The notes under the pieces: generated by a model | What the model saw: only the letters and a program-made list of their open reading frames with translations | Told to the model about the DNA's origin: nothing | The model's database searches: none | Shown: piece after piece, positions 3,510-37,070 of the stretch | How positions within the stretch are numbered: the stretch's first letter is position 1 | How the letters are laid out: the number at the start of each line of letters is the position of its first letter | Translations under genes and position numbers: made by a program | IMG/VR virus record: IMGVR_UViG_3300045988_179014 | Location: 160,001 to 224,000 of that record | Direction: 5' to 3' (one strand) | Length of the DNA: 64,000 nt | Origin: a virus

Positions 3510-6500
3510 CTAGATTTCTATTGTTTCTTCGGTTTTACCCGTATCTGTTACGCCTTTATTGGTTTTGCGTTGATTATGCATGATGCTTTCCAAAACCGTA
3601 TCCAAATCGGTATCAATTTTGCGTCCTATTTCATCGTTGTACCAGCTGATAATAGCTCCAGCATAGGATGCACGAATATAGTCAAATTGTTTTTCTTGCC
3701 AAGCATATGAAATAGTTTGACGGTCCAAATAAGCGTCAAGGAATTCAGGAATATCAGGCATTTTTCCAGTCTTCATGTAACTGTCAATGTCATAGTTGAT
3801 AGAGGTTGACAGAACATGAAGTTTCTTGGCTCGTTGTGATGGAGTCAAACCATAAACATCCAAGTGGTTGTCATAATCGTTAACCAGCTCATGAGTTACA
3901 TTGTCAGTGAAATTACTGCGGAATTGTGTGCTACCTTTGAAACGTTGGTCATATGCATCCGCCAGTTTCTTGCGTTCATCTTGTTGACGTGGAGACATTT
4001 TCTGGTTACGAGGAGATTCAGGAGCACGACGGAAAATAACTTCTGAAGCTTCTGGGTCAACACCGTCCGAATAACATTCCCAACACAGAATATTGCCATC
4101 CATAGTACGACCACCTTGGAAAATAGCTGTACCATTTTGGTCTTCCTCATAACGAATGAGTTTTCCACAGCTGGCACAGGCACTTTGACCATTGAAAATC
4201 TCTTCACTTGGGTCAGTGCCCATAGTTTTTGCTGTCTCATAGGACGCTACCGCATTACGAGCAAACAAATTATTACTGCGATAGCTCATATTGGTGAATT
4301 CATTCTTGAATCCGCTACGTAATCCATCTGTTATCTTTCCACCAGCCATTTTTGCACCTACAGCACCAGCAGTCATTGCTGTAGCCATGCGTCCAGACCC
4401 TTTGAACAGATTAGAGGTACCACGAGTAAAACGTTCCCCAATTCGATTTGCTGTATTGGACAAATTGGCTGAAGCGAATCGGAATGATGCCATGGAGTCA
4501 ATAATCTTGTGACGACTCCTGAACAACAGCACAGCCAACAAAATAAGGATAACCATTCCCTGTGCCCACGACAGACTAGTATCATCCATCATACGAATCA
4601 CGCTAACTGTCAAAGCAATGGAAATAGCCAAAAGAATTCCAGTGGCCAATCGTTTCCCAATAGTGTTGAGAACAAGCTCACCATAACCTTTGAAAATCTC
4701 CCAACCACGATTTGCCCAACACCCACACAAGAGCATGATAGGAGCAAAAGCCATCAATAGAGCCAACCCAAATGCATAAATAGCTGACATTACAGCAAAC
4801 ACGAATGGTACTGACAGACCAACAGCCGCAACCACTACTGAAGACGAAGCAGTCCATACCCTGTTGAAGGAATTATTACCCACCCATGTATCCCAATAAG
4901 GAACTGGTGTGGTAGCTTTTGGAACAGTGTATTTAACAGATGTAGTACCACCATTTGGACCACTTCCGGACACTGATGTTTCAATTTGCTCTTCTTGATA
5001 ATTGGCCATGGCATCAACTATGCGCCACCAGTCATTAGCAACGCCAGAAGTGTATTTACTAGTTTCTCCTTCGTGCCCCATAGGAACATGAACATTGGTT
5101 TGTGTACTGATTTGATAAATGGCCCAGTTGTTCACCACAGAGCCATCACCTAAAGGCACCTCAGCAGTTCCGACCTGCTCCTCATTACCATTATCAATGT
5201 CTGAAGCACCACTTCCTGCCCAAGAAGCTATTTTCCCTTTTGCCCACAACTTGTTCCAATCAGTACCAAACTGACCTTCAGCCCAAGGACGTACCAAGAA
5301 AGTTTGCCAATACTGACATCCAACCGCTGAACGCATATTAGCAGAAGCTTGTGTCAGAATATCTTGCTCATCCTTTTTGTTTCCATCAATGATTTTCGTT
5401 TTATAGCTACCAATGTCAGTTGCGCACAACTCATTACCATTGACAAGCTCTGAATTAACCGCTGACAATAAAAGTGACTGACCTACCACAGCAATTTTGT
5501 TAGGTAGACCAATCCAGAATGTAGGAGCAGCTGCAATAACAATAGCTGCCATATACATGAAAAGAGAACGAAGCAAACCATTCAGTGCATTACGGTACTG
5601 TCTTTTAACAATTCCGGTATAAAAGATGTGCAATCCTGTCAATGCAAAAATTATGACAATGAGAGGAGTGAATACACCTTGATACAGTGCATCAAATATG
5701 CCACCTTTTCCGCCAATGAGAGCATTCAATCCCATAACTTCAGTCACATCGGAAAAAGCAAAGTTGATAAGACCAATAGTTATGACTACCATAGTTTTCG
5801 TAATGTTGAAAATACCATTGGCCATGACGTCATTAATACCAGTGGATAATTGACTACCTAAACCTTTGTTGAATTGTATTGTTCGGATATCAGAGGAATT
5901 AGTCATATCCTCCCAAGTACTGCGTGGTTCCAAACGCTGCTCATAATACAAATTTGCTTTGGGGTCACTTGGTGCGGTTTTAGAATTACATGCATCAATT
6001 ACCATGTACTTCCATTCACCAATATATGCTGTGTATTGCAAACCTGCCACACCAAATCTGTCATATGGGTTTACTTTAACGCCTTTGTTGTAGTTTTTCT
6101 CCCCAGATGTTGTGGGTGGAGTGGTTGTACCATTACCCCCATTAGGGTTTGGTGTCACTCCATCCAATGTATGTCCCGTGATGTCTTCATTGATTTTCTT
6201 GAAACCTGGACCAAAAAGGTTGAGAATCCAGTTCAAACCTGTTTCCACATTGTCATTACCTGATGTGACAGCACTTTTGGACCGAAACAGGAAAGGAATG
6301 TCAGAGGTTTGAGCCCACTGATAAGCAGTTGCGGCAGGTTCCGGCAAAACATCACACATCACCCATTGTGTAATGTCGAACGCTTCTGCCTTTTTGGCAT
6401 TATGAACTGTTAAGAAGCTTGATAATCCTAAAACACCCAATAGTGTTGTTGCAATTAGAGTTGTAATAATCTTTAGGCTATTTTTGGATGTTCTTGTAAC

Positions 6501-6542
6501 TGTACGAGAAGAATCGATGTATGACGCTTTATTAGTTGTCAT
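3510..6542 (-). CDS. Giant polytopic membrane protein, paralog A (candidate VirB6/TcpH/TraG-like channel component)
   Basis: The start is set at MTTNKASY, preceded by GAGGAGG nine nt upstream, so it overlaps the upstream gene by 11 nt. It has an N-terminal anchor, an ectodomain of about 250 aa, a cluster of six or more TM helices and a charged C-terminal tail. It shares 'CQYWQTFLVRPWAEGQFGTDWNKLWA' and 'NNWAIYQISTQT' with paralog B, and 'YIGEW' with paralogs B and C. Confidence 0.65.
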   Translation of the reverse strand: MTTNKASYIDSSRTVTRTSKNSLKIITTLIATTLLGVLGLSSFLTVHNAKKAEAFDITQWVMCDVLPEPAATAYQWAQTSDIPFLFRSKSAVTSGNDNVETGLNWILNLFGPGFKKINEDITGHTLDGVTPNPNGGNGTTTPPTTSGEKNYNKGVKVNPYDRFGVAGLQYTAYIGEWKYMVIDACNSKTAPSDPKANLYYEQRLEPRSTWEDMTNSSDIRTIQFNKGLGSQLSTGINDVMANGIFNITKTMVVITIGLINFAFSDVTEVMGLNALIGGKGGIFDALYQGVFTPLIVIIFALTGLHIFYTGIVKRQYRNALNGLLRSLFMYMAAIVIAAAPTFWIGLPNKIAVVGQSLLLSAVNSELVNGNELCATDIGSYKTKIIDGNKKDEQDILTQASANMRSAVGCQYWQTFLVRPWAEGQFGTDWNKLWAKGKIASWAGSGASDIDNGNEEQVGTAEVPLGDGSVVNNWAIYQISTQTNVHVPMGHEGETSKYTSGVANDWWRIVDAMANYQEEQIETSVSGSGPNGGTTSVKYTVPKATTPVPYWDTWVGNNSFNRVWTASSSVVVAAVGLSVPFVFAVMSAIYAFGLALLMAFAPIMLLCGCWANRGWEIFKGYGELVLNTIGKRLATGILLAISIALTVSVIRMMDDTSLSWAQGMVILILLAVLLFRSRHKIIDSMASFRFASANLSNTANRIGERFTRGTSNLFKGSGRMATAMTAGAVGAKMAGGKITDGLRSGFKNEFTNMSYRSNNLFARNAVASYETAKTMGTDPSEEIFNGQSACASCGKLIRYEEDQNGTAIFQGGRTMDGNILCWECYSDGVDPEASEVIFRRAPESPRNQKMSPRQQDERKKLADAYDQRFKGSTQFRSNFTDNVTHELVNDYDNHLDVYGLTPSQRAKKLHVLSTSINYDIDSYMKTGKMPDIPEFLDAYLDRQTISYAWQEKQFDYIRASYAGAIISWYNDEIGRKIDTDLDTVLESIMHNQRKTNKGVTDTGKTEETIEI

Positions 6543-9500
6543 CCGATTTTCCTCCTCGGTCTTCAATACGTTCTTTGGCTTGTTTTTCGGAAGCTCTGGC
6601 ACGAGCAAACAAACCATTCAGCTGCTCTACCATCATATCTCTTTGATGGAATCTGTCTTCAGTCTTTGACAAATGCGCCATCTTCTTATCCAAGCGTTCT
6701 TGTTGAGCTTGTATACGTTTACGCTGACGTGTTTGTCGTGGGGTTTCAGATTCGCTACGGGTTTCGCGTGCTTCGTCAATGTGTTCCATGACGGCATTAC
6801 GGTCCTCATGGAAATCATTAATCCGTTGTGCGGCGCGTTCCAGGTTAGAGGATTCAGCATATGTTTCTGATTCAAATTTAGCTTTCTTCGCGTCCAAGCT
6901 TTGTTGCAGTTCAGTGGCTTTAGCGATTCTACGGGTGGTTCTAGACATGGAACCGCTCTTCATTGATGGGGCTTTCGGTTTCATCACCTCATGGCCTTCT
7001 GCATCAATTTTAATTTTGCGCCCATCAACATCCGCATCCTCCAACTTGTGCCATGCCTCCAACTCTCGTTCATAATCTTGATACGCTTTTGTCCCTTTCA
7101 AAACCTCATTGGATGTAGCTTTGAAATCATCATGTTCGCGTAGTTTCTTCTGAGTGTCTTCTTTACCTTGTTTAGCGGCTTTCAGCGCGGTTTCAGCTAT
7201 ACGGAAACCACGACGACGTTGTTTGTTACGAAGACTGGCCAATTCATACTTGGCTGATTCTTTCGCACCAGCCGCCATACCTTTAACACCACCAGACAAA
7301 TATCCCCCGATAGCGCCTGTAGCCAATCCGGAAACAGTTGTACCAGTTCGTGCCAATGCGTTGGAAATCAGTCCTCCGCGTTCCAATGTGTGTTTCCTGC
7401 GCCAACCATCAGGGTCACTTACAAACTGTCCTCCTACAGGTGCTCCCATCTTGGCACTGATACCATCAAAAATCATTGTCAAAATGGGCTTTTTCAAACG
7501 AAGGAAGATGAGACAGGTTACAACCAGCATGAGAGAATTGAGTAAATAATTAGTTGATGCATTACCAAAACCGACCAGTACACGGAACATGACTGCCATC
7601 ACCAACACAAGCACAATTCGTTGGATAACAAGACCAATAATTGTTCCCACGTATCCTTTGAGTTTCATCCGTCCTTGTGTAGGGTGAATTCCAATCAAAA
7701 ACATGAGAGGCAGAATCAGTAACATGATTAATGTCACGAAAACAATCTGAATCTTCGTAATTGTATATGCTAAAACAGTAACCATTCCCAATCCACTGAC
7801 CAGAGGCGAAAGCATTCCCACTTGCATTCGAGCACCCATATCTTTGCCAGCCCATGTGTTCAGGTAACGTCCATCTGTTCCTGCGCCACCATTGGGACCA
7901 GCTTGAAGGTCAACCAAACGATAGAAGTTGCGGTCAATGTTTCCAGATGGTCTGCTTGGGTCAGGATGTGATGCTGTACCAGAAGATGTGGTTTGAAGCT
8001 GATACAGAGCCCAGTTTTTGACTGTAACGCCACCACCCATGTTAATGGAAGCATCACCAACCAAACTACCATTGGTGTTGTTCATACGATTAGGATAATT
8101 AGTATTGGATGCATACAAATGGTCAAAATTGGTTCCCCACTGCCCATGCACCCATGAATTGAAAGCAAAAACACGCCAATTCTCACACATTAACCTACGA
8201 GTTGACTCATGAGGCCCATAATCCAAAGTACGCCCATCTAAACCAACATTTTTGTCAGTGGCTACTGTGCCTGAAGCCGTGCAAACCTCATCACCTTCGG
8301 AGTTACCAACAGAATAAATCGACCCAATAACAGCAGCCTCAACTTGTGCAGGAACTCCATCAATCATCTTCAAAGTTTGTTCCGGACGATACATGAGGAA
8401 AACCCCAGTCATAATCGTTCCTGTCATCAGCAACAAACTCACAGCCTGACGTTTATAATCTTTGTTTTTACCAGCGCTCCACAATGCCATCAATCCTGCA
8501 ATGGCTACAGCAAAAGCTACTAATGGGAAAAACACACTATCACGGAAACCTCCAATTAGTTTGACAACCAGATTATCCAATCCAAGTGTTTCAAAAACTG
8601 GGCTGAATGAAAGGTTAATCACAGTATTGGAAACACGCGTGAAGAAAATAGATACACCCAACCCCATACTGGCAAGAGAGGTCGTGATACTGCTCATAGG
8701 TATCAGTGAGGAGAAAATGGATTTGTCAACCAAACCATATCGTGTATCAAGTCCGGGTTTTTCTTGACCGTTGACATAACCGTTCCCAAAAAACCCATCC
8801 TGAATTGGCGGACGTGTTGCTTGGCATTTAGGGTTAAGGTTTCCATTATGGTCATACAGCATTACTGGATTTGGACCATCTTTTATGTCTTTCCCTTTAG
8901 CATCAGTACAAACAAAACGATTCCACGGAGCATTGAAGTTTCTACTTGGGTCAGCTTGCACCCATTCCCGAAGTTTGGCTTCTGTCAACTGTTCTTTAAT
9001 CCATTTGTCATTGGATTCAGTTTGACTACTTTTCTGAGCTTTTTCAGCTGCTTTATCCCAAGCATCCGGCCAACAGGCATTGAAAGTAGCCAAATTCGTG
9101 GCACGATTGTTTTCGTCTGTATCCAAAGTGCAGGAAATACCATATTTTTCAGCCGCATCAAACAATGTCTTATTGGCTTCTTTCCACGCAGCTAATGTCT
9201 CTGCTTTCTGTGTGCCATCTTTTGACCAAACATAATCTGCATTGTCATTGGCGGGTGGGTTACTGCCTGCTTGACGTGTATCATATGCAGCTTTAGCAGC
9301 CGTTTTACATTCATCTTCTGTCGGACCTGGTGCAATGCTTGTGTTCCCCCATGCTTCATTACTACCACTAGAATTGACGAAAGTACATTGAGCAATCGCT
9401 TCTTTCGGGGCTGGAGGACCACCTTGAATTGATTGCAAATCATCAGGAACTTTTGATTTATCAGGAGAGGAATTACTCAACATGTTAATAAGTTGAGATT

Positions 9501-10551
9501 TGGCATTTGCAGCAACTTCTGTACTGGTCAATTCCCGTGCCTGATATAGTGTGCCCCCATACCCTATCCGATACCAAGCGTATGTGTTAAAGACATTTAG
9601 GTCTGATGTATCCAGGATGGAGTTTAGTGTAGCTGAAGTCGCTCCTTCAAAAAACCCAGTGAACATGCCACCAATAGCGCCCAGAACATCACCATTGGAA
9701 ATACTGTTGGAGAAATTCGTCGCAGCACGGTCAACACCACCAGCTATACCATTAGCAATAGCTGTGACAGACATTGTAAGATTATCCATGAAACCGAAAT
9801 TTGACAATGCTCTAGCTGCTGTCATCACTTTTACATGGTCCCATTCACCCAAATAATTGGTGAATTTCATGTTGTAACCAAAAGTTTCTAGTGCTGTGTA
9901 TTTCACTGTTCTGGCACTAGGGTCTACCGGAGCACCACCACCAGGAAGATTACTGGGCAGACCAAACCAGGCAGCATCCAATGTAGCATTTTCCACTTCC
10001 GCATATTGTGGTCCAGTTCGTGCAATAAATCCCAAAAGGTCCTGAAATAGTTCAGTTCCAAGATTTGGTACATCACAGTTGTGGTATAGAGGAGTTCCAG
10101 CAGTTGAAATGTTTACATCACAGTTTTTACCTGAACCGTTGATACCGTTTGGTGCTCCTCCGGCTGCTGAACCAGTGCTTGTTTCGTTCATATACGAAGT
10201 AGTCAAGATTCGTTGAATTACTGAAGCAAAAGTATTGGTTTCTCGTGTTGCTCCACCTTCTTTGTCGAATTTATCCATTGTGGAGTAAAACGAGTCTTCA
10301 GGGTTGTCTTTTTTTACAATGTATGAGTCAGCAGCTTTGTTGATTTTGTCTTTAGCATCGTTTTCGTCAGCAAATGCGGTCTTGGAGGAATTAACGAAAA
10401 CAGAAGTTATGGTAACGATTAAGAATAAAACGGCCAAGGCCCCGCTGAGAAGCGATTTAAGGGCAGCACGAAAACGAGTGGTACCTTGGGTGGGATGACT
10501 CCCGAACCCCATGTAGGAGGCACCTTTAGACTGTTTACGTGAGGTTTGCAT
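6532..10551 (-). CDS. Giant polytopic membrane protein, paralog B (candidate VirB6/TcpH/TraG-like)
   Basis: The 1339-aa protein has an N-terminal TM, an ectodomain of about 600 aa and a multi-TM core. Its C-terminal tail is a coiled coil rich in K, E and R. 'CENWRVFAFNSWVHGQWGTNFDHLYA', 'KNWALYQLQTT' and 'YLGEW' align with paralog A. Confidence 0.65.
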   Translation of the reverse strand: MQTSRKQSKGASYMGFGSHPTQGTTRFRAALKSLLSGALAVLFLIVTITSVFVNSSKTAFADENDAKDKINKAADSYIVKKDNPEDSFYSTMDKFDKEGGATRETNTFASVIQRILTTSYMNETSTGSAAGGAPNGINGSGKNCDVNISTAGTPLYHNCDVPNLGTELFQDLLGFIARTGPQYAEVENATLDAAWFGLPSNLPGGGAPVDPSARTVKYTALETFGYNMKFTNYLGEWDHVKVMTAARALSNFGFMDNLTMSVTAIANGIAGGVDRAATNFSNSISNGDVLGAIGGMFTGFFEGATSATLNSILDTSDLNVFNTYAWYRIGYGGTLYQARELTSTEVAANAKSQLINMLSNSSPDKSKVPDDLQSIQGGPPAPKEAIAQCTFVNSSGSNEAWGNTSIAPGPTEDECKTAAKAAYDTRQAGSNPPANDNADYVWSKDGTQKAETLAAWKEANKTLFDAAEKYGISCTLDTDENNRATNLATFNACWPDAWDKAAEKAQKSSQTESNDKWIKEQLTEAKLREWVQADPSRNFNAPWNRFVCTDAKGKDIKDGPNPVMLYDHNGNLNPKCQATRPPIQDGFFGNGYVNGQEKPGLDTRYGLVDKSIFSSLIPMSSITTSLASMGLGVSIFFTRVSNTVINLSFSPVFETLGLDNLVVKLIGGFRDSVFFPLVAFAVAIAGLMALWSAGKNKDYKRQAVSLLLMTGTIMTGVFLMYRPEQTLKMIDGVPAQVEAAVIGSIYSVGNSEGDEVCTASGTVATDKNVGLDGRTLDYGPHESTRRLMCENWRVFAFNSWVHGQWGTNFDHLYASNTNYPNRMNNTNGSLVGDASINMGGGVTVKNWALYQLQTTSSGTASHPDPSRPSGNIDRNFYRLVDLQAGPNGGAGTDGRYLNTWAGKDMGARMQVGMLSPLVSGLGMVTVLAYTITKIQIVFVTLIMLLILPLMFLIGIHPTQGRMKLKGYVGTIIGLVIQRIVLVLVMAVMFRVLVGFGNASTNYLLNSLMLVVTCLIFLRLKKPILTMIFDGISAKMGAPVGGQFVSDPDGWRRKHTLERGGLISNALARTGTTVSGLATGAIGGYLSGGVKGMAAGAKESAKYELASLRNKQRRRGFRIAETALKAAKQGKEDTQKKLREHDDFKATSNEVLKGTKAYQDYERELEAWHKLEDADVDGRKIKIDAEGHEVMKPKAPSMKSGSMSRTTRRIAKATELQQSLDAKKAKFESETYAESSNLERAAQRINDFHEDRNAVMEHIDEARETRSESETPRQTRQRKRIQAQQERLDKKMAHLSKTEDRFHQRDMMVEQLNGLFARARASEKQAKERIEDRGGKSDDN

Positions 10552-12958: not shown

Positions 12959-14055
12959 TACATTTTCTCCATTTTTCCACCAACGAACAACGGCAGATAT
13001 CGTTCTGGTTTAATATGTTTTTTCTGAGCACGAATATTCTTCAAAGTTTGCTCCCTGTTGAATTGTTCAAAATTTGTCCCATCTTCCGAAGCAAGAAACG
13101 AATAAAATGGACCATGAACATCTTTCAACAAGTCTTTCCAACGATTGGAAACATTTTTGTATTCAGCAGGTGGCAAAGAAGCAGCAATACCAGCCAAATA
13201 TGGAGGAATGTTAGCATAATTCAAATCAGACAACAGAACCGCTTTGGCCGTGTCGGTAAAATTCCATGATTCGAAAAATACTCCAAACGGGGTCTCCACA
13301 AAAGGTGTTTGAAAATTCTGGGACAAGGTTACATCTGCATGATAATCTTCCAATGGGTCCAGAAGATTCACATGATTCAAGTTCTGTTCAAAATTTTCCT
13401 GCTCCTCAACCAGCTCTAATGTCATATTACGATTGACAGCATACGGTTTGTTACTTTTCTCCAACCGTCCATTCATGGTTTTCAAATCAGCTTTTCCAGA
13501 ATGAAAATATGCCAAGACTTCTTCGTTTGTAGCATATCGTCCCATTTCTTCAGACATTTTCTTGCGTACAGCTGAAATCTTCTTGTATCGCTGGAAACGC
13601 GAAGGAGCAACGCCAAACGGTGCCTCTATAACTGATAGTTCTTTCTTGGCATATGTGATAATCCATTGAAACAAATAATTGGTGGATGATTTGTTCAGTT
13701 TGTCCACATCAAAATGCCGCAACCCTTTAATCATTCCATTGATACCTGCGTAATATAAAACAGTGAACAAATTATCGTCTTTGCCGTTCAAGTGAGAATT
13801 TTTGATTAATTTGTTGATTTCACGGGTTATGAGCGGACCAGCCAAAGAAGCAATACGATTCACCACCAAATCCCTGAGACGCGACTGTGTTTCTAATGCG
13901 TTTCGTAATCCTGGGTCTAAATCAGGTTCCAGTAATTGTTCCAAAGCCCTGTCACCCATATGAAACAATGGAACATAATATATGAGAGCTTCTACAGTAA
14001 TACGGTCATTGGAGTTTTTACTTGTATGGAGTTTGGATTGTTTGGTAACATTCAT
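12958..14055 (-). CDS. Divergent sigma-70-family factor (region 2 recognisable)
   Basis: 'LYYAGINGMIKGLRHFD...STNYLFQWIITYAKKE' aligns to sigma-70 region 2.1-2.4 'LIQEGNIGLMKAVEKFD...FSTYATWWIRQAI'. Its start overlaps the stop of the upstream ATPase gene. Confidence 0.5.
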   Translation of the reverse strand: MNVTKQSKLHTSKNSNDRITVEALIYYVPLFHMGDRALEQLLEPDLDPGLRNALETQSRLRDLVVNRIASLAGPLITREINKLIKNSHLNGKDDNLFTVLYYAGINGMIKGLRHFDVDKLNKSSTNYLFQWIITYAKKELSVIEAPFGVAPSRFQRYKKISAVRKKMSEEMGRYATNEEVLAYFHSGKADLKTMNGRLEKSNKPYAVNRNMTLELVEEQENFEQNLNHVNLLDPLEDYHADVTLSQNFQTPFVETPFGVFFESWNFTDTAKAVLLSDLNYANIPPYLAGIAASLPPAEYKNVSNRWKDLLKDVHGPFYSFLASEDGTNFEQFNREQTLKNIRAQKKHIKPERYLPLFVGGKMEKM

Positions 14056-15296
14056 ATACTGCGTCCCCCTGTTATGGGGCTGGTTGGTAGTCTTCTGGTA
14101 CTAGAGTTGGAAGACGTAGAAATAGGATTGTCTTTCGAAACGGAAGCAGACGAGTTAACTTTCCGAGCTGGATGGCGTACACTTCTTTCTGATGTCAAGA
14201 AACGTTCAGGATTGACACCATGATTCGCAAACTGAACCCGCAACGCATCAGACATGTTTCCCTCCTTGTAAAAAGCATCCTTATTGCTGTCATACAAATA
14301 CAGTGGTTGAGTTGTGATTTTGGCATCCTCACCTGTACCTAATGTTGGAACAATCTCTTGAATATGGCTCACTCGGTGTTGCCCATTACGAAGAAGTACC
14401 AATTGCACAATAATGTCCACAGCATTGGCGATGTCAGTGTTGATAGCACGTACTGGCACATTTGGACGACCTTCAGTAGCAAAATTGGTCATTTTACGTA
14501 AACAAGCAACCGGGTCATCGGCGTGAATAGTGGTCAATGAACCTTCCATACCAGAGTTAGCAGCAGTAAGAAAATCAGCGAACTCTTTACCACGAGTTTC
14601 ACCAATGATTAATCTATCTGTTCTCATACGTTGAAACTGTTGAACAACCCATGACAGGGAGGCAACACTATTGGGGTCCAAACCAGGCTGTGCGGGAACT
14701 GAATGCAAATATGACACGTTTGGTTGTGGTAATACCAGTTCAGGGGTATCTTCAGCAACACCAATACGAACATTTGTTGGAATGAGGTTCGCCATTGCCT
14801 CCAACATGGTTGTTTTACCTGCACCAGTCGCTCCACTGAATGTTATTGTACGGCTCGCTTGCATAGCTGCTATCAAAAATGCCATCATTTCGTCGCTCAT
14901 AGACCCCCGAGCGGCTAAATCCTCCAACTTCCGTAATGAAGTAGATTTCTTGGCGATAGTAACTTGTGGGTAATCAGTGGATGGTGGAAGAACAATATGG
15001 CACCGTCCTCGAATTTCTTGCCCATCCACACTGAAAAACAATCTACCCTCAAACAAAAAACCATTAGGGTCGTATTTTGTCAGATTGCTTTTCACAAATG
15101 GAATCAGACCTTCTTCAATTCCTCTAGCATAATCCGATTCAGAAGACCTACCAATACTTATCTGACTGCGTTGACCATTTCGTTTGAGAAAAAATTGTCC
15201 TGGACCATTAGACTCTATTTCGGACACATCCGCTTCCAACAACAAATTGAAACAACGGTTCCATTCAGACACTTTGCTGATACTGTACATATTCAT
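14052..15296 (-). CDS. CpaF/TadA / VirB11-family secretion ATPase
   Basis: It carries the Walker A 'SGATGAGKTT'. 'AEDTPEL' and 'RTDRLIIGETRGKEFADFLTAANSGMEGSLTTIHADDP' match the type II/IV secretion NTPase signatures (R-x-R-P-D-R-I-I-V-G-E-x-R-G...T-G-H-x-G-x-x-T-x-H-A). Confidence 0.8.
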   Translation of the reverse strand: MNMYSISKVSEWNRCFNLLLEADVSEIESNGPGQFFLKRNGQRSQISIGRSSESDYARGIEEGLIPFVKSNLTKYDPNGFLFEGRLFFSVDGQEIRGRCHIVLPPSTDYPQVTIAKKSTSLRKLEDLAARGSMSDEMMAFLIAAMQASRTITFSGATGAGKTTMLEAMANLIPTNVRIGVAEDTPELVLPQPNVSYLHSVPAQPGLDPNSVASLSWVVQQFQRMRTDRLIIGETRGKEFADFLTAANSGMEGSLTTIHADDPVACLRKMTNFATEGRPNVPVRAINTDIANAVDIIVQLVLLRNGQHRVSHIQEIVPTLGTGEDAKITTQPLYLYDSNKDAFYKEGNMSDALRVQFANHGVNPERFLTSERSVRHPARKVNSSASVSKDNPISTSSNSSTRRLPTSPITGGRSI

Positions 15297-20764: not shown

Positions 20765-20791
20765 TTTGGTATTGAGTTCTAGTCAGTTAGT

Positions 20792-25233: not shown

Positions 25234-26847
25234 TTAACCAATAAAATGGTAACCGTAATAAGCTCGGCCACCAGTATCCACCAAATTCTCGTTCAAGTAG
25301 TTTGCATCACCCAAAGCAGCCACACGAGTCAGATAAGAGGCATGTGCAATAGTGTCACGTCCATTTACATCACCTAAATACAATAGAATGTGACCATTGA
25401 CCCGAGTAACCCAAATGTCACCAGGTTTTGCTTCAGATTTCTTGGTGTATTGTTGCCATTTAGGGCTCTTCGCCAAATAATTTCCTTGTTCAGTCGTAGA
25501 CCCCCAAGGGATATCAGGGTCACGTGTCAAACGAATCACAGTTGCAACAAAACGGTCACATGAAGCATACAAACCGGACCAAGGGTCGGGGCTGGATTTT
25601 TCTTCTGCTTTTTTCTTGCCTTCAAGGTATTCAGGTTTTGCTTTTTGGCGACCTTCTGAATCTCCAGGCCCAACTCGTGATTCAGCTGAAGTTGGATATG
25701 ACATGCTAATAGCTAATTGCACAATGTCTGAGGTATCTAGATTACCACCGCTACTGTTTAAACAACTACCTCCAGTGTTAGCAGTGTATCCACCTCCGCC
25801 CTTGTAATTGGCCAAGAATTTTTCCGCACCAGCATAACGGTTATCCATACGTGGAATGCCAGCACGTTCAAATCGTTGTTCGAAAATCAAAACTAAATCT
25901 TTAGCAGTTTTGGAAGGGTCGTTAAAACCACCTGCAACCAGATTAGCGCCTTCCCATCCTTCCAGCTCAGTTTTGAAAAATTCAAGTTGCACATTGATGT
26001 CTGTCCAGTGCTTTCCTTGTTGTTTAGCAAAATTCGCAAAAGTGGTTCGACGTTCACCATCCCACTGAGCCAGACCAACTGCTTTACCTCCACCAGTAAC
26101 AGCAGCCAACTCCTCATTGGAGACACTAGAACTCATGAAATTGTTTTGCACCAGTTTAGGGTCGACTTGGGATTCTTGTGACCAGTTTCCAATAATACCA
26201 GCCACCTGATTAAGACTCATTGGTTGTCCCCCCAAGAAGTCGAATTTGGTGGTCATCAACCAATTGGCAATAGAGTTCGCGTTGCCAATCCAATCACCTT
26301 TATCTTCTGCTTGGACACCATTTGTACTTCCTGCAACCCCACACCCATCAGCATTTTCATTACGTCCCACAACTTGAAAAGTGGCCATAACGCCAATGAC
26401 CAATGACGCAATAACGTTAATAACCAATACCCCTACCCAAAATATGGGGTCTAAAAGTAAAGGAACCACAACAGTGACAAAAGCTTTAGCAGTGGCTACT
26501 GTTTTCTTGACAATATTTTTAACACTTCGGGTTTTCTCAACTGTTTTCTGGATTGCTTCTTTACCTTCAGGAGAAACAGTATTACCAGCCATGTCGGCAA
26601 CTTTTGTAGCGGCTGCTTGTTTCAACGCTGCTTTAGGGTTCCTGACCGTGTCTTTGACTGATGAATCCTTCAATGAACTAAAAGGTTGGGAATTGCTACG
26701 TTCAACACCAGAGGTAGATACCGCATCTGACTTTTGAGCAGAATTAGCTGCATTCGATTCCTGCATCTTGCTATTTGATGACATATTGGTGTTTTTGCCA
26801 GGAGAAATATTGTTCTCGCTTTCAGGTAATTCGTTTATTTGAGCCAT
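25234..26847 (-). CDS. Bifunctional cell-wall hydrolase, CwlT/TcpG-like (lytic transglycosylase/muramidase plus NlpC/P60 peptidase) with N-terminal TM
   Basis: The TM is 'VTVVVPLLLDPIFWVGVLVINVIASLVIGV'. 'AGIIGNWSQESQ...GLAQW' is a lytic-transglycosylase-type E-S motif. The C-terminal 'YASCDRFVATV...NGHILLYLG...IAHASY' gives a Cys-His-His arrangement of the NlpC/P60 or CHAP type. Confidence 0.65.
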   Translation of the reverse strand: MAQINELPESENNISPGKNTNMSSNSKMQESNAANSAQKSDAVSTSGVERSNSQPFSSLKDSSVKDTVRNPKAALKQAAATKVADMAGNTVSPEGKEAIQKTVEKTRSVKNIVKKTVATAKAFVTVVVPLLLDPIFWVGVLVINVIASLVIGVMATFQVVGRNENADGCGVAGSTNGVQAEDKGDWIGNANSIANWLMTTKFDFLGGQPMSLNQVAGIIGNWSQESQVDPKLVQNNFMSSSVSNEELAAVTGGGKAVGLAQWDGERRTTFANFAKQQGKHWTDINVQLEFFKTELEGWEGANLVAGGFNDPSKTAKDLVLIFEQRFERAGIPRMDNRYAGAEKFLANYKGGGGYTANTGGSCLNSSGGNLDTSDIVQLAISMSYPTSAESRVGPGDSEGRQKAKPEYLEGKKKAEEKSSPDPWSGLYASCDRFVATVIRLTRDPDIPWGSTTEQGNYLAKSPKWQQYTKKSEAKPGDIWVTRVNGHILLYLGDVNGRDTIAHASYLTRVAALGDANYLNENLVDTGGRAYYGYHFIG

Positions 26848-26855
26848 TATCTACC

Positions 26856-29800
26856 TCATTTGGAATCATCAAGTTTGCTTGCACGTTGATACAGTTCAGC
26901 CGCTTTACGACGACGACCTCGGATTTCGGCTTGTAGAGCACGAAGAGCTTTACCTGACAGGTCTGATTGTTTAGCTTCTAGTTGAGCTACTTCGCGTTTC
27001 AGTCGCTCTGATTCTGCATACAATTTTTGTGCCTCATTTAATCCCATGTTTCCTACTTCTTGACGGGGTGTCTCATTGCGTCGTGATTGTTCCAACTGTT
27101 CTGCTTTAGCTGCTTCCCGCTGGACAATCGCTTCACGTATTCTCCGCGCCTTAGCAGCTTGTTCATCCTTATTAGGGGCATGTGGTGATTTGGCCCCATT
27201 AGTTTGAGGTGTTGTGGGAGTAGCAGGAGTAGATGAGGTGGTATCAACTGGAGGCAACGGAATTTCGTCCACATGTTGCTCAAAGAATGAATCCTCTTCT
27301 GGATAATCCACTGGTGGTATGTCTTCATCCCGAGGAGCTGGAGGACGAGGAGTCATTCCACGGTCACGCAAGCTATTCTTTCGCTGCGCTTCATAAGCAT
27401 TGCGTCGATTGGAAGTGTTTGTTCGAGCTGCACGTTCAGATTCACCAGCTACAAAATCAGACTTTGTTGGAGCATCTGGGACAACCACCTGAGTTGGGTT
27501 GAATACTTCACGGTCATCTTCTTTACGTCCTAACCGCGCTTTCTGCTCTTTTTTGGTTTCAAGATTCTGAGCAATCATTTCACGGTTGATTTGCTCTTCC
27601 ACTCTTTGAACTCCACGGTCAGTCAATCCATCACCTGGACGCATATTGATGAACGCATCTCCATACGCCTTGCTCTTGATTGCAGCTTCAGCATGAGCAC
27701 GTTCAGCATCATTGAGCGCCTCCCCAGCATGGACAATCTCCTGTTCCAAACGTCTACGGTCAGCAGCTTGAGTAGCATCAAATGTACGCAACTCTTGCAA
27801 TTCATTTAGAGCAGAGGCATCTAATTTATCCATACCGGCAGCATCGATTTCTTTAGCGAGAATGCTGTCATATTCGTTCTGATAATTGGCCAAACGGTCT
27901 GTGGAAATGCCACTGGCCAATCTGCGAGCACGGTCAGAATACTGGTCTATCTGGTCTTGTAGAATAGCGGCCTTACCCATGTCACCACTATTGATAGCAA
28001 TATTCAGCTGCAACTTGCTGTCAGAGAGCAAATTCTTCAAATCTTGCAGTTGAGCAAAATCTTGCGCCTCATCATAAGCATCATTGACCGCAGAAATACG
28101 TTCAGTTTTCTCTTCCTCTGAGAAGTTTCCATTACGGATGTCACGTAGTTGAGCCACACGGTCAGCATGTGTTTTTTCACGGAAATCATCGAGTATCTGA
28201 TGCTCCATGTTGCGAACACCACGATAGTTTTCCTCAACTTGCTGTAGACGTTGGTTCTTGTCATCAGCTTGTTCATCAAATGATGCCAATGTGTCCTGAG
28301 CATCACGCAAATCAGTTTCACGTTCATCACGAGTTGTAGCAGCTGTGGTTTCCGCAGCGGCAGCATCTTGCATCTTGGCTCGCATATCCTGTTTGTTATC
28401 AACGCTATTACGGTCATACTGACGAGCAATATTGCCAACTAAGCCAGAACTGCGTTTGAGCTGACGTTTGGCGCCATCCTTGAGGCCGGAGATGGACGCA
28501 CGACGCAGCTCGCCCCAACCGCCTTTCTGGAATGGGTTTGCACCAGTTGCCACCATACCGCCAATAGCACCACCGGCACCCGCCAGTGCAAGGTTCTTCC
28601 CAAATGACCCCATATTTTCTGCACGAGAGCGTAATTTGTCCGCCATACTGCTGGACAATTGTTCACCACCCATGTTGACACGACCCACAAGGTTCATCAA
28701 TTCACGTCTGTACATGAACAATGCCATGGTAACAATAACAACGAATAACAGGGTTAGACCCATATTCGACAGATTACCCAAGATGCCACCATAAATAGCA
28801 ATTGCAACCACTAGGAACACTGCTGATGCAAGGTATTTCAAAACCGCTGCAATAACTTTTTCCAACCATCCAAATAGAATTCGTTTACCTCGACCAGGAT
28901 GTACACCTAGTAAGAAGAACAAGGCTCCAAAAGACAACAGAATAAGTGAAGAAATATAATAAATAAGCGCAAATAATGAAACCACGAAAATTATGAACGT
29001 ACCCAATACTGAAACAATAAATGACATACCAGCAACATTGATTTTTCCAATACCGCTGCTGAGGTCATTGCTCCAATGTGTCCACAGGCCTTCATCAGCC
29101 GCAGAAGCCATAATAACGCGATACCATCGAGGGTCGAAATCATTTGTAGTGAAATTGGGGTCCCCATCGGATTGCGCATTAACCGACAAATACATCTGAT
29201 ATGCCATCAAATTGCATACACGGTTTTTGTTGGGTGCATCAAGACTTAACGTGTTTCCTTGGTCATTGACAGAACCACTAGACCCCAAACTGACACAATA
29301 CATGTCAGGATTGAGGTCAGTTTCTTTCAGTTTGGCACGGAATGGACTGTCTGAAGCTTTTGTATCCAGGTCCGCGAAAGATGCCCCAAAACTGGCTTGT
29401 GTATATGGCTCCAGAACAAATGCTTTCCAGATGGAGCATGTGATAGAGTTTGCGGTCAACGACATTTGTTCGTCCAACGTGGCACCAGATGCAGCAGACA
29501 TACAAATCTTATCGGATGTTGACTCTCCTTCATTATAATCAATTTGAGTTGAGGAACCGCCCATACAATTTTGCCCATTGAATGCACCAATAACACATGT
29601 TGACACCGCATTGGACACAGCCATAGGCGCTTTTGCCAACAGAGCCGGATTCAACAAAAGAGCCAATCCAAAAATAACGGAGAGAGTAATCCATAAAGCA
29701 CCAAACAATGCTTCACGGAATTTACGTTTCACCAGTCCTAGATAAGCAACCCAGAATCCTGCTACTGTCACCACAATAACCAGCAAAGGATAGTAGATAC

Positions 29801-30539
29801 TGGATGTTAAAGCTCCAATAATACCGCCATCTGAACGACCAGTGCCACCAATCACTTTGAGTAGATTGAGACAGCTGCCATTTGGATGTGCTGGGTCAGG
29901 ACAAATAATGTTAGGGTTAAAAGCGCTGACGGCAATGAATTGAGCCACGTTGGTTACTAGTCCAGAAAGACTCATTAGCCCATCGGCAACCCATGGAAGA
30001 GCTTGCATGAAACAGTTGGACCAAGCCGACCGTGTTTTCTCCAGCTTTTCAGCATTTTTCTGATAGTACGTGTCAAAACTGGCATTGCCACCATCAAAAG
30101 TTTTCAGTATCCCGTCAGCTACTTCGGGTTTTTTCTTTGATTTGGTCCAGGGGGCGTCTTTGGCTTCGCCTTCACCTTCGTAAGCGACAAATCCTAACCC
30201 GCCACCTAAAGCTTCTTGCATTGTCCAAGTGCGACCACTGCTGTCAGGTTGTACATATCCACCCACTACTGTGTTACGCCAACCATCTTTACGGTCCATT
30301 CCTAAACCTGTTGTATAAATGCATCCAATTTCTGGACTACCTGCTTCAGCAGTATTAATTAAATTGGATTGTTTCTGTGTCAGTACACTACTGGCGAAGG
30401 GTTGTAATGCGAGTACAACAGCGAGCATAGCAAAGACACCAGCAATCAATCCTAGAAAAGGATGACGCTGATTGTGCGACACTTGAGAAGTCGCGAAATT
30501 CTCGTCAATATACGAGGAGCCGTTTGCACGCTTAATCAT
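26856..30539 (-). CDS. Giant polytopic membrane protein, paralog C (candidate VirB6/TcpH-like) with long C-terminal coiled-coil/charged tail
   Basis: The 1227-aa protein has an N-terminal TM, a multi-TM core ('LLVIVVTVAGFWVAYLGL...', 'FIVSVLGTFIIFVVSLFALIYYISSLILLSFGALFFLLGV') and about 550 aa of K/E/R/Q-rich tail. 'CSIWKAFVLEPYTQASFGASF' and 'RWYRVIMASAADEGLWTHWS' align with the C-W-F-W-G block of paralogs A and B. Confidence 0.65.
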   Translation of the reverse strand: MIKRANGSSYIDENFATSQVSHNQRHPFLGLIAGVFAMLAVVLALQPFASSVLTQKQSNLINTAEAGSPEIGCIYTTGLGMDRKDGWRNTVVGGYVQPDSSGRTWTMQEALGGGLGFVAYEGEGEAKDAPWTKSKKKPEVADGILKTFDGGNASFDTYYQKNAEKLEKTRSAWSNCFMQALPWVADGLMSLSGLVTNVAQFIAVSAFNPNIICPDPAHPNGSCLNLLKVIGGTGRSDGGIIGALTSSIYYPLLVIVVTVAGFWVAYLGLVKRKFREALFGALWITLSVIFGLALLLNPALLAKAPMAVSNAVSTCVIGAFNGQNCMGGSSTQIDYNEGESTSDKICMSAASGATLDEQMSLTANSITCSIWKAFVLEPYTQASFGASFADLDTKASDSPFRAKLKETDLNPDMYCVSLGSSGSVNDQGNTLSLDAPNKNRVCNLMAYQMYLSVNAQSDGDPNFTTNDFDPRWYRVIMASAADEGLWTHWSNDLSSGIGKINVAGMSFIVSVLGTFIIFVVSLFALIYYISSLILLSFGALFFLLGVHPGRGKRILFGWLEKVIAAVLKYLASAVFLVVAIAIYGGILGNLSNMGLTLLFVVIVTMALFMYRRELMNLVGRVNMGGEQLSSSMADKLRSRAENMGSFGKNLALAGAGGAIGGMVATGANPFQKGGWGELRRASISGLKDGAKRQLKRSSGLVGNIARQYDRNSVDNKQDMRAKMQDAAAAETTAATTRDERETDLRDAQDTLASFDEQADDKNQRLQQVEENYRGVRNMEHQILDDFREKTHADRVAQLRDIRNGNFSEEEKTERISAVNDAYDEAQDFAQLQDLKNLLSDSKLQLNIAINSGDMGKAAILQDQIDQYSDRARRLASGISTDRLANYQNEYDSILAKEIDAAGMDKLDASALNELQELRTFDATQAADRRRLEQEIVHAGEALNDAERAHAEAAIKSKAYGDAFINMRPGDGLTDRGVQRVEEQINREMIAQNLETKKEQKARLGRKEDDREVFNPTQVVVPDAPTKSDFVAGESERAARTNTSNRRNAYEAQRKNSLRDRGMTPRPPAPRDEDIPPVDYPEEDSFFEQHVDEIPLPPVDTTSSTPATPTTPQTNGAKSPHAPNKDEQAAKARRIREAIVQREAAKAEQLEQSRRNETPRQEVGNMGLNEAQKLYAESERLKREVAQLEAKQSDLSGKALRALQAEIRGRRRKAAELYQRASKLDDSK

Positions 30540-32213: not shown

Positions 32214-32816
32214 TTACTTCAAGTCGCTATTGCTTCCGAATGCTACAGCACTAACACTGGATTTATGGGTTTGACAAGCAGGAAGACCAAAAACGCCAAA
32301 AAAGTTTGTTGATGTGGTGTAAACATCTGCTGAAATTACTCTATAAACATTACCGTTCAAAGAATGTTGAGGAATCGCCCCATTTCCTTCAATTGTCCAT
32401 GTACTGGTAACTTGTTTCTTGGCTCCACGTTCCGTTCCTAAAGTCACCACAATATATGGCATTTTTCGTTTCACACCATTGACGACAGCAGTGGAACACG
32501 CTTCCGAATTGTACACTTGAGTTTCCGCTGTGCTACCATCAGGTTTCAGTCCATACTGAGTGCGATACTCTCGTACAAAAGCTGATACGGCCTGATTTCC
32601 CAAACTACCAGTTGAATTCACTGATTTCACACCAGTTTCAACAGCTGTTTGTGCCATGGAAGCATAAGCACGGTCTGCATTCACTGATTTAGCGGTATCA
32701 ACAACAAAACCCATGGTAAGAACAAACAACGGAATAGCCAACAAGAACACCACTAAAACACTGTCACCACGGTCAGAGCGTAATCTAGCTTTCAAACGGT
32801 TCATCATTGTTCTCAC
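32214..32816 (-). CDS. TadE-like (Flp-pilus pseudopilin family) protein 2
   Basis: The N-terminus 'RLKARLRSDRGDSVLVVFLLAIPLFVLTMGFVVD' has the TadE pattern of R-G-S/D, a hydrophobic helix, then V-[DE]-F. It is paralogous to the adjacent gene. Confidence 0.6.
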   Translation of the reverse strand: MRTMMNRLKARLRSDRGDSVLVVFLLAIPLFVLTMGFVVDTAKSVNADRAYASMAQTAVETGVKSVNSTGSLGNQAVSAFVREYRTQYGLKPDGSTAETQVYNSEACSTAVVNGVKRKMPYIVVTLGTERGAKKQVTSTWTIEGNGAIPQHSLNGNVYRVISADVYTTSTNFFGVFGLPACQTHKSSVSAVAFGSNSDLK

Positions 32817-33370
32817 CTTTTGACAAGACTTGACTGGTCTAATTTTACTTCAGATTCAGCAGAACCCGCTGTGACACTCACATTGTCTTTGCGTACAATG
32901 GAGAAAAATGAACCGGCAATACCACCATATTCCCACTGCACTTCACAAGTGACTCGTTGTCCAATGAATGTTGTGACATTAGGAGTGCAATTAACACTTT
33001 TAACAGTTGCATTAACAATCCCATTGGACTCATTCAACCCACGAATAATGTTGCATTCAATAGGGGTGGAATTATTGGTGAAAGCATTACTGGCTATACC
33101 ACCACTCAATCCCGTACAGGCAGTTGCTCTACTTTGTCCATATTTTGCTTCGATTGGTGTTCCCATAGTAGCAGTACCATCCCCACCCATGATTGCAACA
33201 GTACGAGCCCCATCACGAGCAACAGATTGAATTTGTGAACGATTGGTGAGATACAAACTAAAATCAACTGCTGTCACAATAAGCATGAACATTATGGGAA
33301 TTACAAAAACAGCTGACACCAACGAATCACCACGGTCAGACTTCAACCGTTTATAGAGTTTTTTAAACAT
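32813..33370 (-). CDS. TadE-like (Flp-pilus pseudopilin family) protein 1
   Basis: 'KRLKSDRGDSLVSAVFVIPIMFMLIVTAVDFSLYLTNRSQIQSVARDGARTVA' matches the TadE consensus '...AVEFALVLPLLLLLLFGIIEFGR...L.HAAREGAR'. Confidence 0.65.
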   Translation of the reverse strand: MFKKLYKRLKSDRGDSLVSAVFVIPIMFMLIVTAVDFSLYLTNRSQIQSVARDGARTVAIMGGDGTATMGTPIEAKYGQSRATACTGLSGGIASNAFTNNSTPIECNIIRGLNESNGIVNATVKSVNCTPNVTTFIGQRVTCEVQWEYGGIAGSFFSIVRKDNVSVTAGSAESEVKLDQSSLVKR

Positions 33371-36710: not shown

Positions 36711-37070
36711 TCAATCGGAGAAGTTGTTAGGTAGTTCTGCAAAAGATACTCCAGGTACAGTAACAAGATTTGCACTATTCACCATGTTGATGTCTTTAGC
36801 AGCATTCTTAGCAACGCCAGTCAAACCAGAATCCTTGTTACCAAAGATTTCAGAACCAGCGAAGATTAGAACACCAACCACAGCCGCAATACCAACGAAT
36901 GCCAACAATTTCATCCAAGCACGGTCTTTAAGGAAAAAAATAGCAAAGATAGCAACTGCTGCCAAATAGATAGGGGTGAGCCAGCCTTTAAGGACATTGT
37001 TCCACAAGTCAACAAGACCCGCAGCTGGAATCTCAATTGTCATTTGTTGTAAAGTGTTGAAAATTTCCAT
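36711..37070 (-). CDS. Small two-helix membrane protein (candidate pilin / VirB2-VirB3-like T4SS subunit)
   Basis: The 119-aa protein has two hydrophobic helices, 'WLTPIYLAAVAIFAIFFL' and 'LLAFVGIAAVVGVLIFAGSEIF'. Its gene is followed by a strong terminator, as is typical of highly expressed pilin genes. Confidence 0.4.
   Translation of the reverse strand: MEIFNTLQQMTIEIPAAGLVDLWNNVLKGWLTPIYLAAVAIFAIFFLKDRAWMKLLAFVGIAAVVGVLIFAGSEIFGNKDSGLTGVAKNAAKDINMVNSANLVTVPGVSFAELPNNFSD

Follow-up and report, generated by a model that had tools for sequence, protein, structure and literature searches.

Three ancient paralogues of the extended VirB6 type in a probable monoderm-type conjugation module of a giant metagenomic element

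Three large membrane proteins encoded in one stretch of DNA

The subject of this study is a set of three very large membrane proteins, here called A, B and C, which are encoded in a 64,000-nucleotide stretch of DNA (the window; positions 160,001 to 224,000 of the IMG/VR virus record IMGVR_UViG_3300045988_179014). Lists of open reading frames (ORFs) in the window confirmed all three genes at the coordinates given by an initial annotation of the sequence, and all are on the minus strand. A (3510..6542, 1010 aa) and C (26856..30539, 1227 aa) are extended VirB6/TrbL-family proteins and B (6532..10551, 1339 aa) is an extended VirB6-fold protein. C lies 16 kb away from the B/A pair and is adjoined by a hydrolase gene of its own.

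The gene for A has a second in-frame ATG upstream, at 6617, which would give a protein of 1035 aa; in public gene calls this longer form is present in some JGI entries and the 1010-aa form in most others. A strong Shine-Dalgarno sequence (GAGGAGG) lies 8 nt ahead of the start at 6542, and this start has an 11-nt overlap with the stop codon of B; the 1010-aa form is therefore the likelier. B and A look translationally coupled, and the overlap suggests coupled, stoichiometric expression of the two proteins.

Homology of A, B and C

The initial annotation had claimed that the three proteins share blocks of sequence, and this was borne out. BLASTP aligned A with B at an E-value of 1e-29 (23% identity over 678 columns), A with C at 5e-23 and B with C at 3e-22. 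Orthologue-family alignments were then built for each protein and compared profile to profile with hhalign, which gave a probability of 100% for all pairs over 440-540 columns (A-B, E 1.7e-57; A-C, E 8.7e-63; B-C, E 8e-52). The outcome that would have told against the claim, namely alignments without significance, was found neither with the single sequences nor with the profiles. A profile made from all three families detected exactly three copies among all ORFs of the window. On these alignments A, B and C are true paralogues, with a similarity far beyond chance.

The most conspicuous of the shared blocks is rich in Cys and Trp. It is located at 5256..5318 on the minus strand in A (CQYWQTFLVRPWAEGQFGTDW, residues 409-429, in the central loop), at 8125..8187 on the minus strand in B (CENWRVFAFNSWVHGQWGTNF, residues 789-809) and at 29376..29438 on the minus strand in C (CSIWKAFVLEPYTQASFGASF, residues 368-388), and the three versions align mutually in pairwise BLASTP. 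Residues invariant in the joint alignment of all three families include G175 of a YxGE motif, P340, the C373/C409 pair, W412, G426 and N472 (A numbering). A second motif, Y[IL]GEW, had been reported for all three proteins. It is present in A (YIGEW, at residue 173) and in B (YLGEW, at residue 233), but C carries YEGEG at residues 120-124. For the block around this motif, which is part of the N-terminal ectodomain, local hhalign supports homology of A and B (probability 94.8%, E 4.8e-8), the local match between B and C is weaker (probability 68%), and the full-length profile alignment of A and C matches YIGEW to YEGEG.

Architecture and predicted topology

The layout of the proteins was derived from the hydropathy of single sequences and of family-averaged alignments, together with AlphaFold models of A (predicted local distance difference test, pLDDT, 85.1; predicted template modelling score, pTM, 0.74) and of residues 1-1100 of B (pLDDT 80.3, pTM 0.71). 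All three follow a common plan. A short Lys/Arg-rich N-terminus, one anchor helix, an ectodomain and an amphipathic helix are followed by a strong pair of transmembrane (TM) helices, a folded loop of 180-210 aa, a second hydrophobic cluster and a tail. The strong pair (TM2/TM3) is joined in A, B and C by a Lys/Arg-rich turn, which reads KRQYR in A, and the segment behind the last TM helix is again Lys/Arg-rich. Hydropathy indicates at least five hydrophobic helices and a large extracytoplasmic loop. The Cys/Trp block resides inside the folded loop of 180-210 aa, between the two clusters of hydrophobic helices, and not in the N-terminal ectodomain where the initial annotation had placed it. The architecture proposed there, consisting of an anchor, an ectodomain, a multi-helix core and a tail, is indeed common to the three proteins. 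The ectodomain length of 250 to 600 aa is not, since we measured ~190 aa in A, 135-190 aa in C and ~560 aa in B, and the tails are not alike.

B has the layout of A with an additional Cys-rich insert of ~265 aa (residues ~346-610, window ~8722-9516), which contains three further conserved Cys pairs and forms a long helical hairpin in the AlphaFold model. No recognisable fold match to the ectodomain or insert of B was found in the PDB. In the tail of A, a Gly-rich linker leads to a four-Cys zinc ribbon (CxxC...CxxC; residues 789-823, 4074..4178 on the minus strand) and then to a helical domain. Across 88 orthologues, C789 of the ribbon does not vary and C792, C820 and C823 are almost invariant, and Foldseek matched the ribbon to the ZZ domain of p62 (6mj7) with a probability of 0.87 and a TM-score of 0.57 normalised to the target. 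The T4SS (type IV secretion system) literature examined makes no mention of a zinc-binding module on a VirB6 protein. The tails of B (310 aa, charged) and C (608 aa, charged, coiled-coil-like and Pro-rich) are poorly conserved.

From the positive-inside rule, the invariant Cys pairs in the regions assigned to the outside and the domain insertions seen in orthologues, we infer a topology for A, B and C in which the N-terminus is inside, about six helices cross the membrane, both of the big hydrophilic regions are outside and the tail is inside. The ectodomain and the central loop would then be exposed to the cell wall and are probably disulfide-bonded. Residues 236-272 of A were considered as a TM helix and set aside, as the equivalent segment of B and C is weakly hydrophobic and that of C is directly followed by an invariant Cys pair.

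Relationship to the VirB6/TrbL family

A matches the Pfam family TrbL (PF04610) with 29.6 bits and passes the gathering cut-off of 25.9. The same family appears in the precomputed annotation of ~45 of the 108 orthologues of A, ~48 of the 78 of C and 3 of the 100 of B. The NCBIfam model NF046089 ('CD3337/EF1877 family mobilome membrane protein') matches all three proteins, at 51.8 bits for A (E 5.5e-14), 27.3 bits for B (E 1.5e-6) and 59.6 bits for C (E 2.3e-16). In the models of A and B, about seven long, largely hydrophobic helices are bundled as they are in TrwI, the VirB6 protein of R388, and B is the best VirB6 fold match of all. In Foldseek searches with the models, TrwI structures were the sole high-probability membrane matches, yet the search was not significant. 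The A-family profile found only noise and zinc-finger-like matches among PDB sequences. C is linked to VirB6 by its profile alignments with A and B, and B is tied to A in the same way.

The VirB6-like nature suggested by the initial annotation is upheld by the score of A above the PF04610 cut-off, the NF046089 matches of all three proteins and the T4SS genes around them. The architecture and the neighbouring genes agree with the definition of an extended VirB6 protein in PMC12857230, and A, B and C are VirB6-family proteins of the 'extended' type in that sense.

Orthologues and the age of the triplication

A large protein collection contains 108 relatives of A, 100 of B and 78 of C. Over 680 core columns the identity is 0.23-0.62 within a family and 0.14-0.23 between families and, because of this difference, the triplication on the evidence of these alignments predates the sampled radiation of the elements. 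Each orthologue group has dozens of invariant residues, Cys pairs included. A profile search of 1.84 billion cluster representatives returned 3326 proteins at E <= 1e-3 and 843 at E <= 1e-30, and the best 150 of these matches were all 936-2115 aa long. This is a large protein family known from metagenomes alone.

Among 52 related IMG/VR loci, 50 were informative, having enough upstream sequence, and in 50 of these 50 a B orthologue is located directly upstream of the A orthologue, at identities of 26-99%. Proteins of the A, B and C families are found on contigs of equal size (for example 727572, 697643, 98173 and 92842 bp), which were taken to be the same contig, and all three paralogues are kept on every large related contig examined. 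On IMGVR_UViG_3300012642_000011 (437,576 bp) the B-A locus is present twice, at 49166-71646 and 365931-388411, in opposite orientation and with identical match statistics, which suggests either a large inverted duplication or a fold-back assembly artefact of a ~220-kb element.

Conservation of the ectodomains and the loop equals that of the TM core (majority fraction 0.5-0.6), and it is lowest in the tails (~0.28-0.30). This distribution fits a structural role of the outer regions better than variable recognition. In some orthologues the outer regions also carry additional domains. P0020, P0038 and P0063 have an M23 or VanY domain in the central loop, immediately ahead of the second hydrophobic cluster, P0098 has M23 together with a transglycosylase at that position, and P0223, an orthologue of B, has M23 in its N-terminal ectodomain. 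An endonuclease/exonuclease/phosphatase (EEP) domain is found among A orthologues, in the ectodomains of P0093 and P0098. By domain content, the orthologues with inserted peptidoglycan-hydrolase domains are VirB6-VirB1 fusion proteins. The insertions provide good indirect evidence that the exposed regions face the cell wall and act with wall-opening enzymes, like the VirB1-type hydrolases of Gram-positive T4SSs.

The conjugation module

Neighbouring genes were annotated by Pfam and NCBIfam scans of the ORFs, and the scanned ORFs reveal a monoderm-type conjugation module that extends over ~38 kb on one strand. It begins with a coupling protein, followed by a TcpC-like protein, a two-TM protein, a TcpF/VirB4-like protein, a GmrSD_C/HNH protein and a NikA/MbpA-like protein. 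The middle part consists of TadE-like pseudopilins, PhoH/PIN, C, a lysozyme, small proteins and a sigma-70-like factor, and the module ends with an SbcC-like ATPase, a T2SSE-family ATPase, HU-like proteins with a GNAT protein, and then B and A. The order is conserved on a 727,572-bp contig, where the C orthologue is 36% identical. The VirB2, 5, 7, 9 and 10 components were without matches in the Pfam and NCBIfam scans of these ORFs, the matches being to the monoderm-type TcpC and TcpF.

The coupling protein (VirD4/TraD-like; 38977..41391, minus strand) matches Pfam TraG-D_C and TrwB_AAD_bind and NCBIfam SXT_TraD (5.7e-21), and has N-terminal TM helices and a Walker A motif at residue 197. The TcpC-like, VirB8-type protein (37184..38923, minus) scores 29.3 bits against Pfam TpcC, for which the cut-off is 27. 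A small two-TM protein (36711..37070, minus), encoded immediately ahead of the VirB4-like gene, is a candidate VirB3/TcpE analogue by position only; it has no family match in Pfam or NCBIfam, and a tcpE-tcpF arrangement is described in PMC12857230. The TcpF/VirB4-like protein (35162..36559, minus) matches NCBIfam TcpF (1.1e-17) and VirB4_CagE (4.4e-4), and its 478-aa form is found in the 727-kb relative too. The GmrSD_C/HNH-domain gene (34332-35150, minus) begins 12 nt after it. A recent disruption of the VirB4 gene by the HNH gene was considered and rejected, because the same pair is present on the distant 727-kb relative (L054 3733-6018), which makes the arrangement a conserved state. Next follows the NikA/MbpA-like relaxosome accessory protein (33431..34291, minus; Pfam NikA-like 32.9 bits with a cut-off of 27, NCBIfam MbpA 8.8e-6).

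The TadE-like pseudopilin (32813..33370, minus; Pfam TadE 6.6e-9) is conserved in the 727-kb relative. Small proteins with an N-terminal hydrophobic segment are scattered among the T4SS genes (32214-33370, 12602-12958 and 20354-20764); besides the TadE-like protein there are three, which have no family match and which we would only guess to be pilin-like. The gene adjoining C encodes a candidate membrane-anchored cell-wall hydrolase (25234..26847, minus; Phage_lysozyme2, Pfam 1.2e-26). It begins 8 nt after C, the two genes are neighbours in the 727-kb relative as well, and the protein has one hydropathy peak, possibly a TM segment. Between the lysozyme and sigma-factor genes (20354-25194) lies a run of about eight small proteins without family assignment, most of them predicted to have a single TM segment. 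The run, which may encode further envelope parts of the machine, is also conserved in the 727-kb relative (L054 16436-19661).

The T2SSE-family secretion ATPase (TadA/VirB11-like; 14052..15296, minus; Pfam T2SSE 1.8e-26) contains a Walker A motif, and its link to the T4SS is uncertain. Gram-positive T4SSs are described as having no VirB11 homologues. The ATPase and the pseudopilin may belong to a separate Tad-type pilus, or the ATPase may be an unusual accessory one. Two closely spaced HU-family genes, one canonical (98 aa) and one divergent (153 aa), are located just upstream of B, at 11200-11661 and 12229-12525.

The giant element

The window is part of a 337,400-bp ENA contig (ERZ27262748, k119_28504), and several assemblies have identical or near-identical A proteins on contigs of 343-347 kb. 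More distant relatives reside on contigs of 400-437, 573, 670-698 and 727 kb. The GC content is 39-45% throughout the window (~41%). Nearly all of the long, non-overlapping ORFs are on the minus strand and the GC skew is negative over the whole 64 kb, in agreement with one replichore of a large replicon on which genes and replication run in the same direction. The window contains no tRNAs. Sample identifiers of several of the IMG/VR loci resemble those that we take to be Human Microbiome Project identifiers.

A megablast search with 25 kb of the window found no match among PLSDB plasmids and GenBank phages, and tblastn with A found none in PLSDB and 50,697 GenBank phage records. Two scans of GTDB representative genomes, with A and with the A-family alignment, detected no relative; they used few back-translated motifs, so the absence is not absolute. 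Against PHROGs, A and B gave no match and C gave one weak match, to a family of unknown function. Genes for virion or structural phage proteins were not found among the ORFs scanned.

Genes of the type seen in huge phages are present at 43617-63180 and include DnaG, a GyrB-like protein, a second GHKL ATPase, an RNase T-like exonuclease, a YqaJ-like recombinase domain, a ThyX-like protein, NT5C and a dNMP kinase. NAD-salvage genes (NAPRTase, nicotinamidase-like, NUDIX/NrtR) are located just upstream of the window. The huge-phage-type gene set probably explains the viral filing in IMG/VR.

Two groups of giant elements offer a comparison. Inocles, from oral, human-associated Bacillota, are circular and 245-395 kb long, switch ORF orientation at the origin and terminus, have VirB4 and VirD4 in all members and an InoC marker gene, and have a GC content of ~32% (alpha to gamma) or 24% (delta) (PMC12340149). 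Hodors, from the gut, have a mean length of 357 kb, were first filed as huge phages and often carry Phage_lysozyme2; their GC content is 44.6-47.1%, and they have Rep_3, ParA/ParB/ParM, sortases, SecYEG and a 7300-aa surface protein (PMC12934698). Their VirB6 was found solely by structure prediction, with no mention of paralogues, and the same study describes giant conjugative plasmids misfiled as huge phages by virus-calling pipelines (PMC12934698). Both groups are read as conjugative, with non-canonical relaxases. The element studied here is like Inocles and Hodors in its size, in genes running in one direction along the replichore, in its VirB4- and VirD4-type genes and Phage_lysozyme2, and in being absent from plasmid databases; they were misfiled as huge phages, and it is filed as viral. 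Identity with Inocles was rejected, as the window GC of ~41% differs from 32% or 24%, although the size fits. The GC is also below the 44.6-47.1% of Hodors. The Hodor markers, none of which lies in the window or within up to ~10 kb beyond each of its ends, may be elsewhere on the ~345 kb. The ~345-kb element resembles Inocles and Hodors as a giant element of the same kind.

Comparison with known VirB6 proteins

Like TrwI, the VirB6 protein of R388 (PDB 7o3v, 8rtd), A, B and C are polytopic helical T4SS inner-membrane proteins, with A above the PF04610 cut-off. In contrast to the 261-residue chain of TrwI, they are 3-4 times longer, and they add an N-terminal anchor with an ectodomain, a folded loop insertion of ~200 aa and tails of 300-600 aa. 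R388 has a single VirB6, whereas here three diverged copies are encoded in a monoderm-type context in which VirB2, 5, 7, 9 and 10 are not recognised. The R388 protein is a pentamer; A, B and C are described here from their sequences and from single-chain models of A and B.

The VirB6 proteins of the monoderm MPF_FA systems (TcpH of pCW3, ConG of ICEBs1, Orf15 of Tn916) are, together with the VirB6/TrbL proteins, the nearest known relatives in sequence and fold. They too are large and have added hydrophilic domains, and as in the window the genes nearby encode TcpC-, TcpF- and TcpE-like proteins, a cell-wall hydrolase and a coupling protein. However, they are 700-900 aa long (PMC12857230) as against 1010-1339 aa for the window proteins, the model systems in the literature examined have one VirB6 homologue each and not three per element, and hydrolase domains inserted in the loop distinguish some orthologues of the window family from them.

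For the copy-number pattern the closest known parallel comes from Rickettsiales, whose multiple extended VirB6 genes are well documented (PMC2653234, PMC7648143). The rvh T4SS has three to five extended VirB6 paralogues of 674-1154 aa, with up to 4322 aa in Anaplasma, named RvhB6a-e in Rickettsia and VirB6-1 to -4 in Anaplasma and Ehrlichia. As in A, B and C, diverged (~80% in rvh) extended paralogues are retained together, mostly in tandem in rvh, after an ancestral duplication in which each copy became its own orthologue group; the pattern is the same, the descent not shared. The rvh genes belong to a chromosomal, effector-type P-T4SS of diderm, obligate intracellular Alphaproteobacteria, in contrast to the monoderm-type giant extrachromosomal element described here, which does not fit a diderm P-type (vir-like) system with VirB8-11 and VirD4, as VirB2, 5, 7, 9 and 10 were without matches and the monoderm-type TcpC and TcpF were matched instead. 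The triplication of A, B and C looks like an expansion independent of that in Rickettsiales, with only the TrbL-family (PF04610) core in common. DotA of the Legionella Dot/Icm system (PDB 9ngy) is also unlike these proteins, being a single-copy component of a type IVB diderm effector system, and no sequence similarity to it was detected.

No triple VirB6 set in a monoderm-type system is described in the literature examined on the monoderm model systems and Hodors. The statement of the initial annotation that a triplicated component of this size is unusual is accordingly supported for monoderm-type systems as far as that literature goes, with the qualification that multiplied extended VirB6 proteins are known from Rickettsiales.

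Discussion

Taken together, the data make it likely that A, B and C are ancient extended VirB6/TrbL paralogues of a monoderm-type (TcpC/TcpF-like) conjugative T4SS on a ~345-kb element known from metagenomes only. Several observations weigh against this interpretation. C scores 17.7 bits against Pfam TrbL, under the cut-off of 25.9, and B has no match to it; all three proteins are below the curated NF046089 cut-off of 120 bits and, judged by these scores, are related to that family without being members by the NCBI criterion. The VirB4/TcpF-like protein covers the N-terminal half only (positions 8-428 of 813 in the TcpF model) and is without Walker A, and the missing ATPase half was not found in neighbouring ORFs by Walker-A motifs or PDB sequence searches. 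No relaxase was recognised within the 64-kb window. Since the VirB4-like protein is without its ATPase half and no relaxase is recognised, the gene content does not demonstrate functional conjugation. The 52 loci related to this plasmid-like element are catalogued as viral genomes in IMG/VR, which makes its plasmid nature less certain. The topology comes from hydropathy and the positive-inside rule. In R388 merely two VirB6 helices are truly in the membrane, and predictors are reported to count too many TM helices in the VirB6 family (PMC12857230); for these reasons the second hydrophobic cluster may, by analogy, not be transmembrane in the assembled machine and may instead form part of an extracytoplasmic stalk, which would shift the location of the tail.

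In R388, the base of the central stalk or protochannel is anchored in the membrane and consists of five VirB6 subunits (PMC9259494), and DotA of Dot/Icm is likewise a stalk base. By analogy with R388, A, B and C would make up the stalk or translocon by which DNA exits the donor. They would most likely act together in one machine, as a mixed oligomer or as stacked rings, with their enlarged, disulfide-stabilised outer domains bridging the thick cell wall beside a peptidoglycan hydrolase and their divergent inner tails docking different partners in the cytoplasm, for instance the coupling protein, the ATPases or the relaxosome. Co-assembly in one machine seems the most economical arrangement because of the strict co-retention of the three genes, the overlap of B with A and the conserved outer surfaces. 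The hetero-oligomeric channel suggested by the initial annotation would be plausible on two grounds, the strict co-conservation of the three genes and the overlapping B-A pair. A more specific proposal is put forward tentatively, as one that could hold but that we would not expect to hold in full. The three paralogues might co-assemble, as a mixed pentamer or as stacked rings, into a wall-spanning stalk that in a monoderm stands in for the VirB2, VirB5 and VirB7-10 of diderm systems, in which the conserved, disulfide-bonded ectodomains form a conduit through the peptidoglycan and each tail docks a different partner, giving a dedicated transfer machine for replicons of at least 345 kb in a large, previously unrecognised family of giant elements of the human microbiome.

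Each paralogue could alternatively form its own homo-oligomeric VirB6 platform, with a different task or partner and without co-assembly. The tails are wholly different, with a zinc ribbon in A and long charged sequences in B and C, and C is 16 kb from B/A and paired with its own hydrolase gene, in keeping with such a division of labour; rickettsial VirB6 paralogues are, moreover, thought to be functionally diverged. The separate tasks might concern different substrates, different recipient envelopes, the assembly of a pilus or adhesin as against the passage of DNA, or escape from entry exclusion, for which VirB6-type proteins are targets, as illustrated by the ICEBs1 exclusion protein that acts on the VirB6 homologue ConG. 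Retention of all three genes on every large related contig examined and the 11-nt B/A overlap, which suggests coupled expression, point away from separate platforms, and the outer parts are conserved and not diversifying, contrary to what exclusion escape or recipient specificity would entail. We regard separate platforms as unlikely, and the same holds for the particular tasks named. It is improbable to a clearly higher degree that the T4SS has no role in conjugation and serves to attach cells to one another, to deliver effectors or toxins, or to take up or release DNA, with the VirB6 ectodomains as surface organelles. Such roles have been proposed for the monoderm-like T4SS of Patescibacteria, which provides a precedent, genes for a Tad-type ATPase and pseudopilin lie among those of the module, orthologues bear hydrolase and EEP domains in their exposed parts, and the incomplete VirB4-like protein and the unrecognised relaxase would also be accommodated. 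Yet the coupling protein has a TraD/TrwB DNA-binding domain and a NikA-like protein is present, Inocles and Hodors are read as conjugative with non-canonical relaxases, and the 64 kb examined out of ~345 kb leave room for a full VirB4 and a relaxase elsewhere.

The suggestion of the initial annotation that the proteins might form a virion membrane-penetration apparatus, or more broadly that they are DNA-injection, tape-measure or internal virion proteins of a huge phage, found no support and is given almost no credence here. It would account for the viral filing of the related contigs and for the PhoH, ThyX-like, dNMP kinase, YqaJ-like and Phage_lysozyme2 genes or domains of the window. The VirB6 fold and sequence and the conjugation-gene neighbours stand against it, as do the PHROGs and tblastn searches described above, in which no tape-measure or internal virion protein was matched, and the lack of structural phage genes among the ORFs scanned; viral filing is, in addition, a known fate of giant conjugative plasmids (PMC12934698). 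Equally hard to sustain is the idea that only one of the three is a working VirB6 and that the other two copies are decaying or non-functional. Some duplicates in rickettsial T4SSs are probably degenerate, and B is without detectable Pfam TrbL similarity, but the best VirB6 fold match belongs to B. The three copies define separate orthologue groups, each conserved down to 23-30% identity and each with its own set of invariant residues and Cys pairs, and all three genes are intact ORFs of more than 1000 aa.

Implications

The VirB6 family and arrays of VirB6 paralogues are known already. What appears to be new is a triple set of extended VirB6 proteins in a monoderm-type T4SS on giant elements, some members of which carry hydrolase domains in the loop. 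How monoderm T4SSs cross the thick cell wall is poorly understood. According to a recent T4SS review (PMC12857230), it is likewise not known what the extra domains of 'extended' VirB6 proteins do. The locus offers a natural experiment, in which three diverged extended VirB6 proteins have been kept together across hundreds of related elements, with outer domains that are conserved and that in some relatives physically carry peptidoglycan hydrolases. If A, B and C were merely redundant paralogues, the result would amount to the routine annotation of a T4SS component. If the three paralogues do co-assemble, theirs would be the first VirB6 platform of a heteromeric kind, and it would offer a way to learn how replicons of several hundred kb are transferred. 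The triple VirB6 profile also provides a sensitive marker for a family of giant elements that are now filed as viruses.

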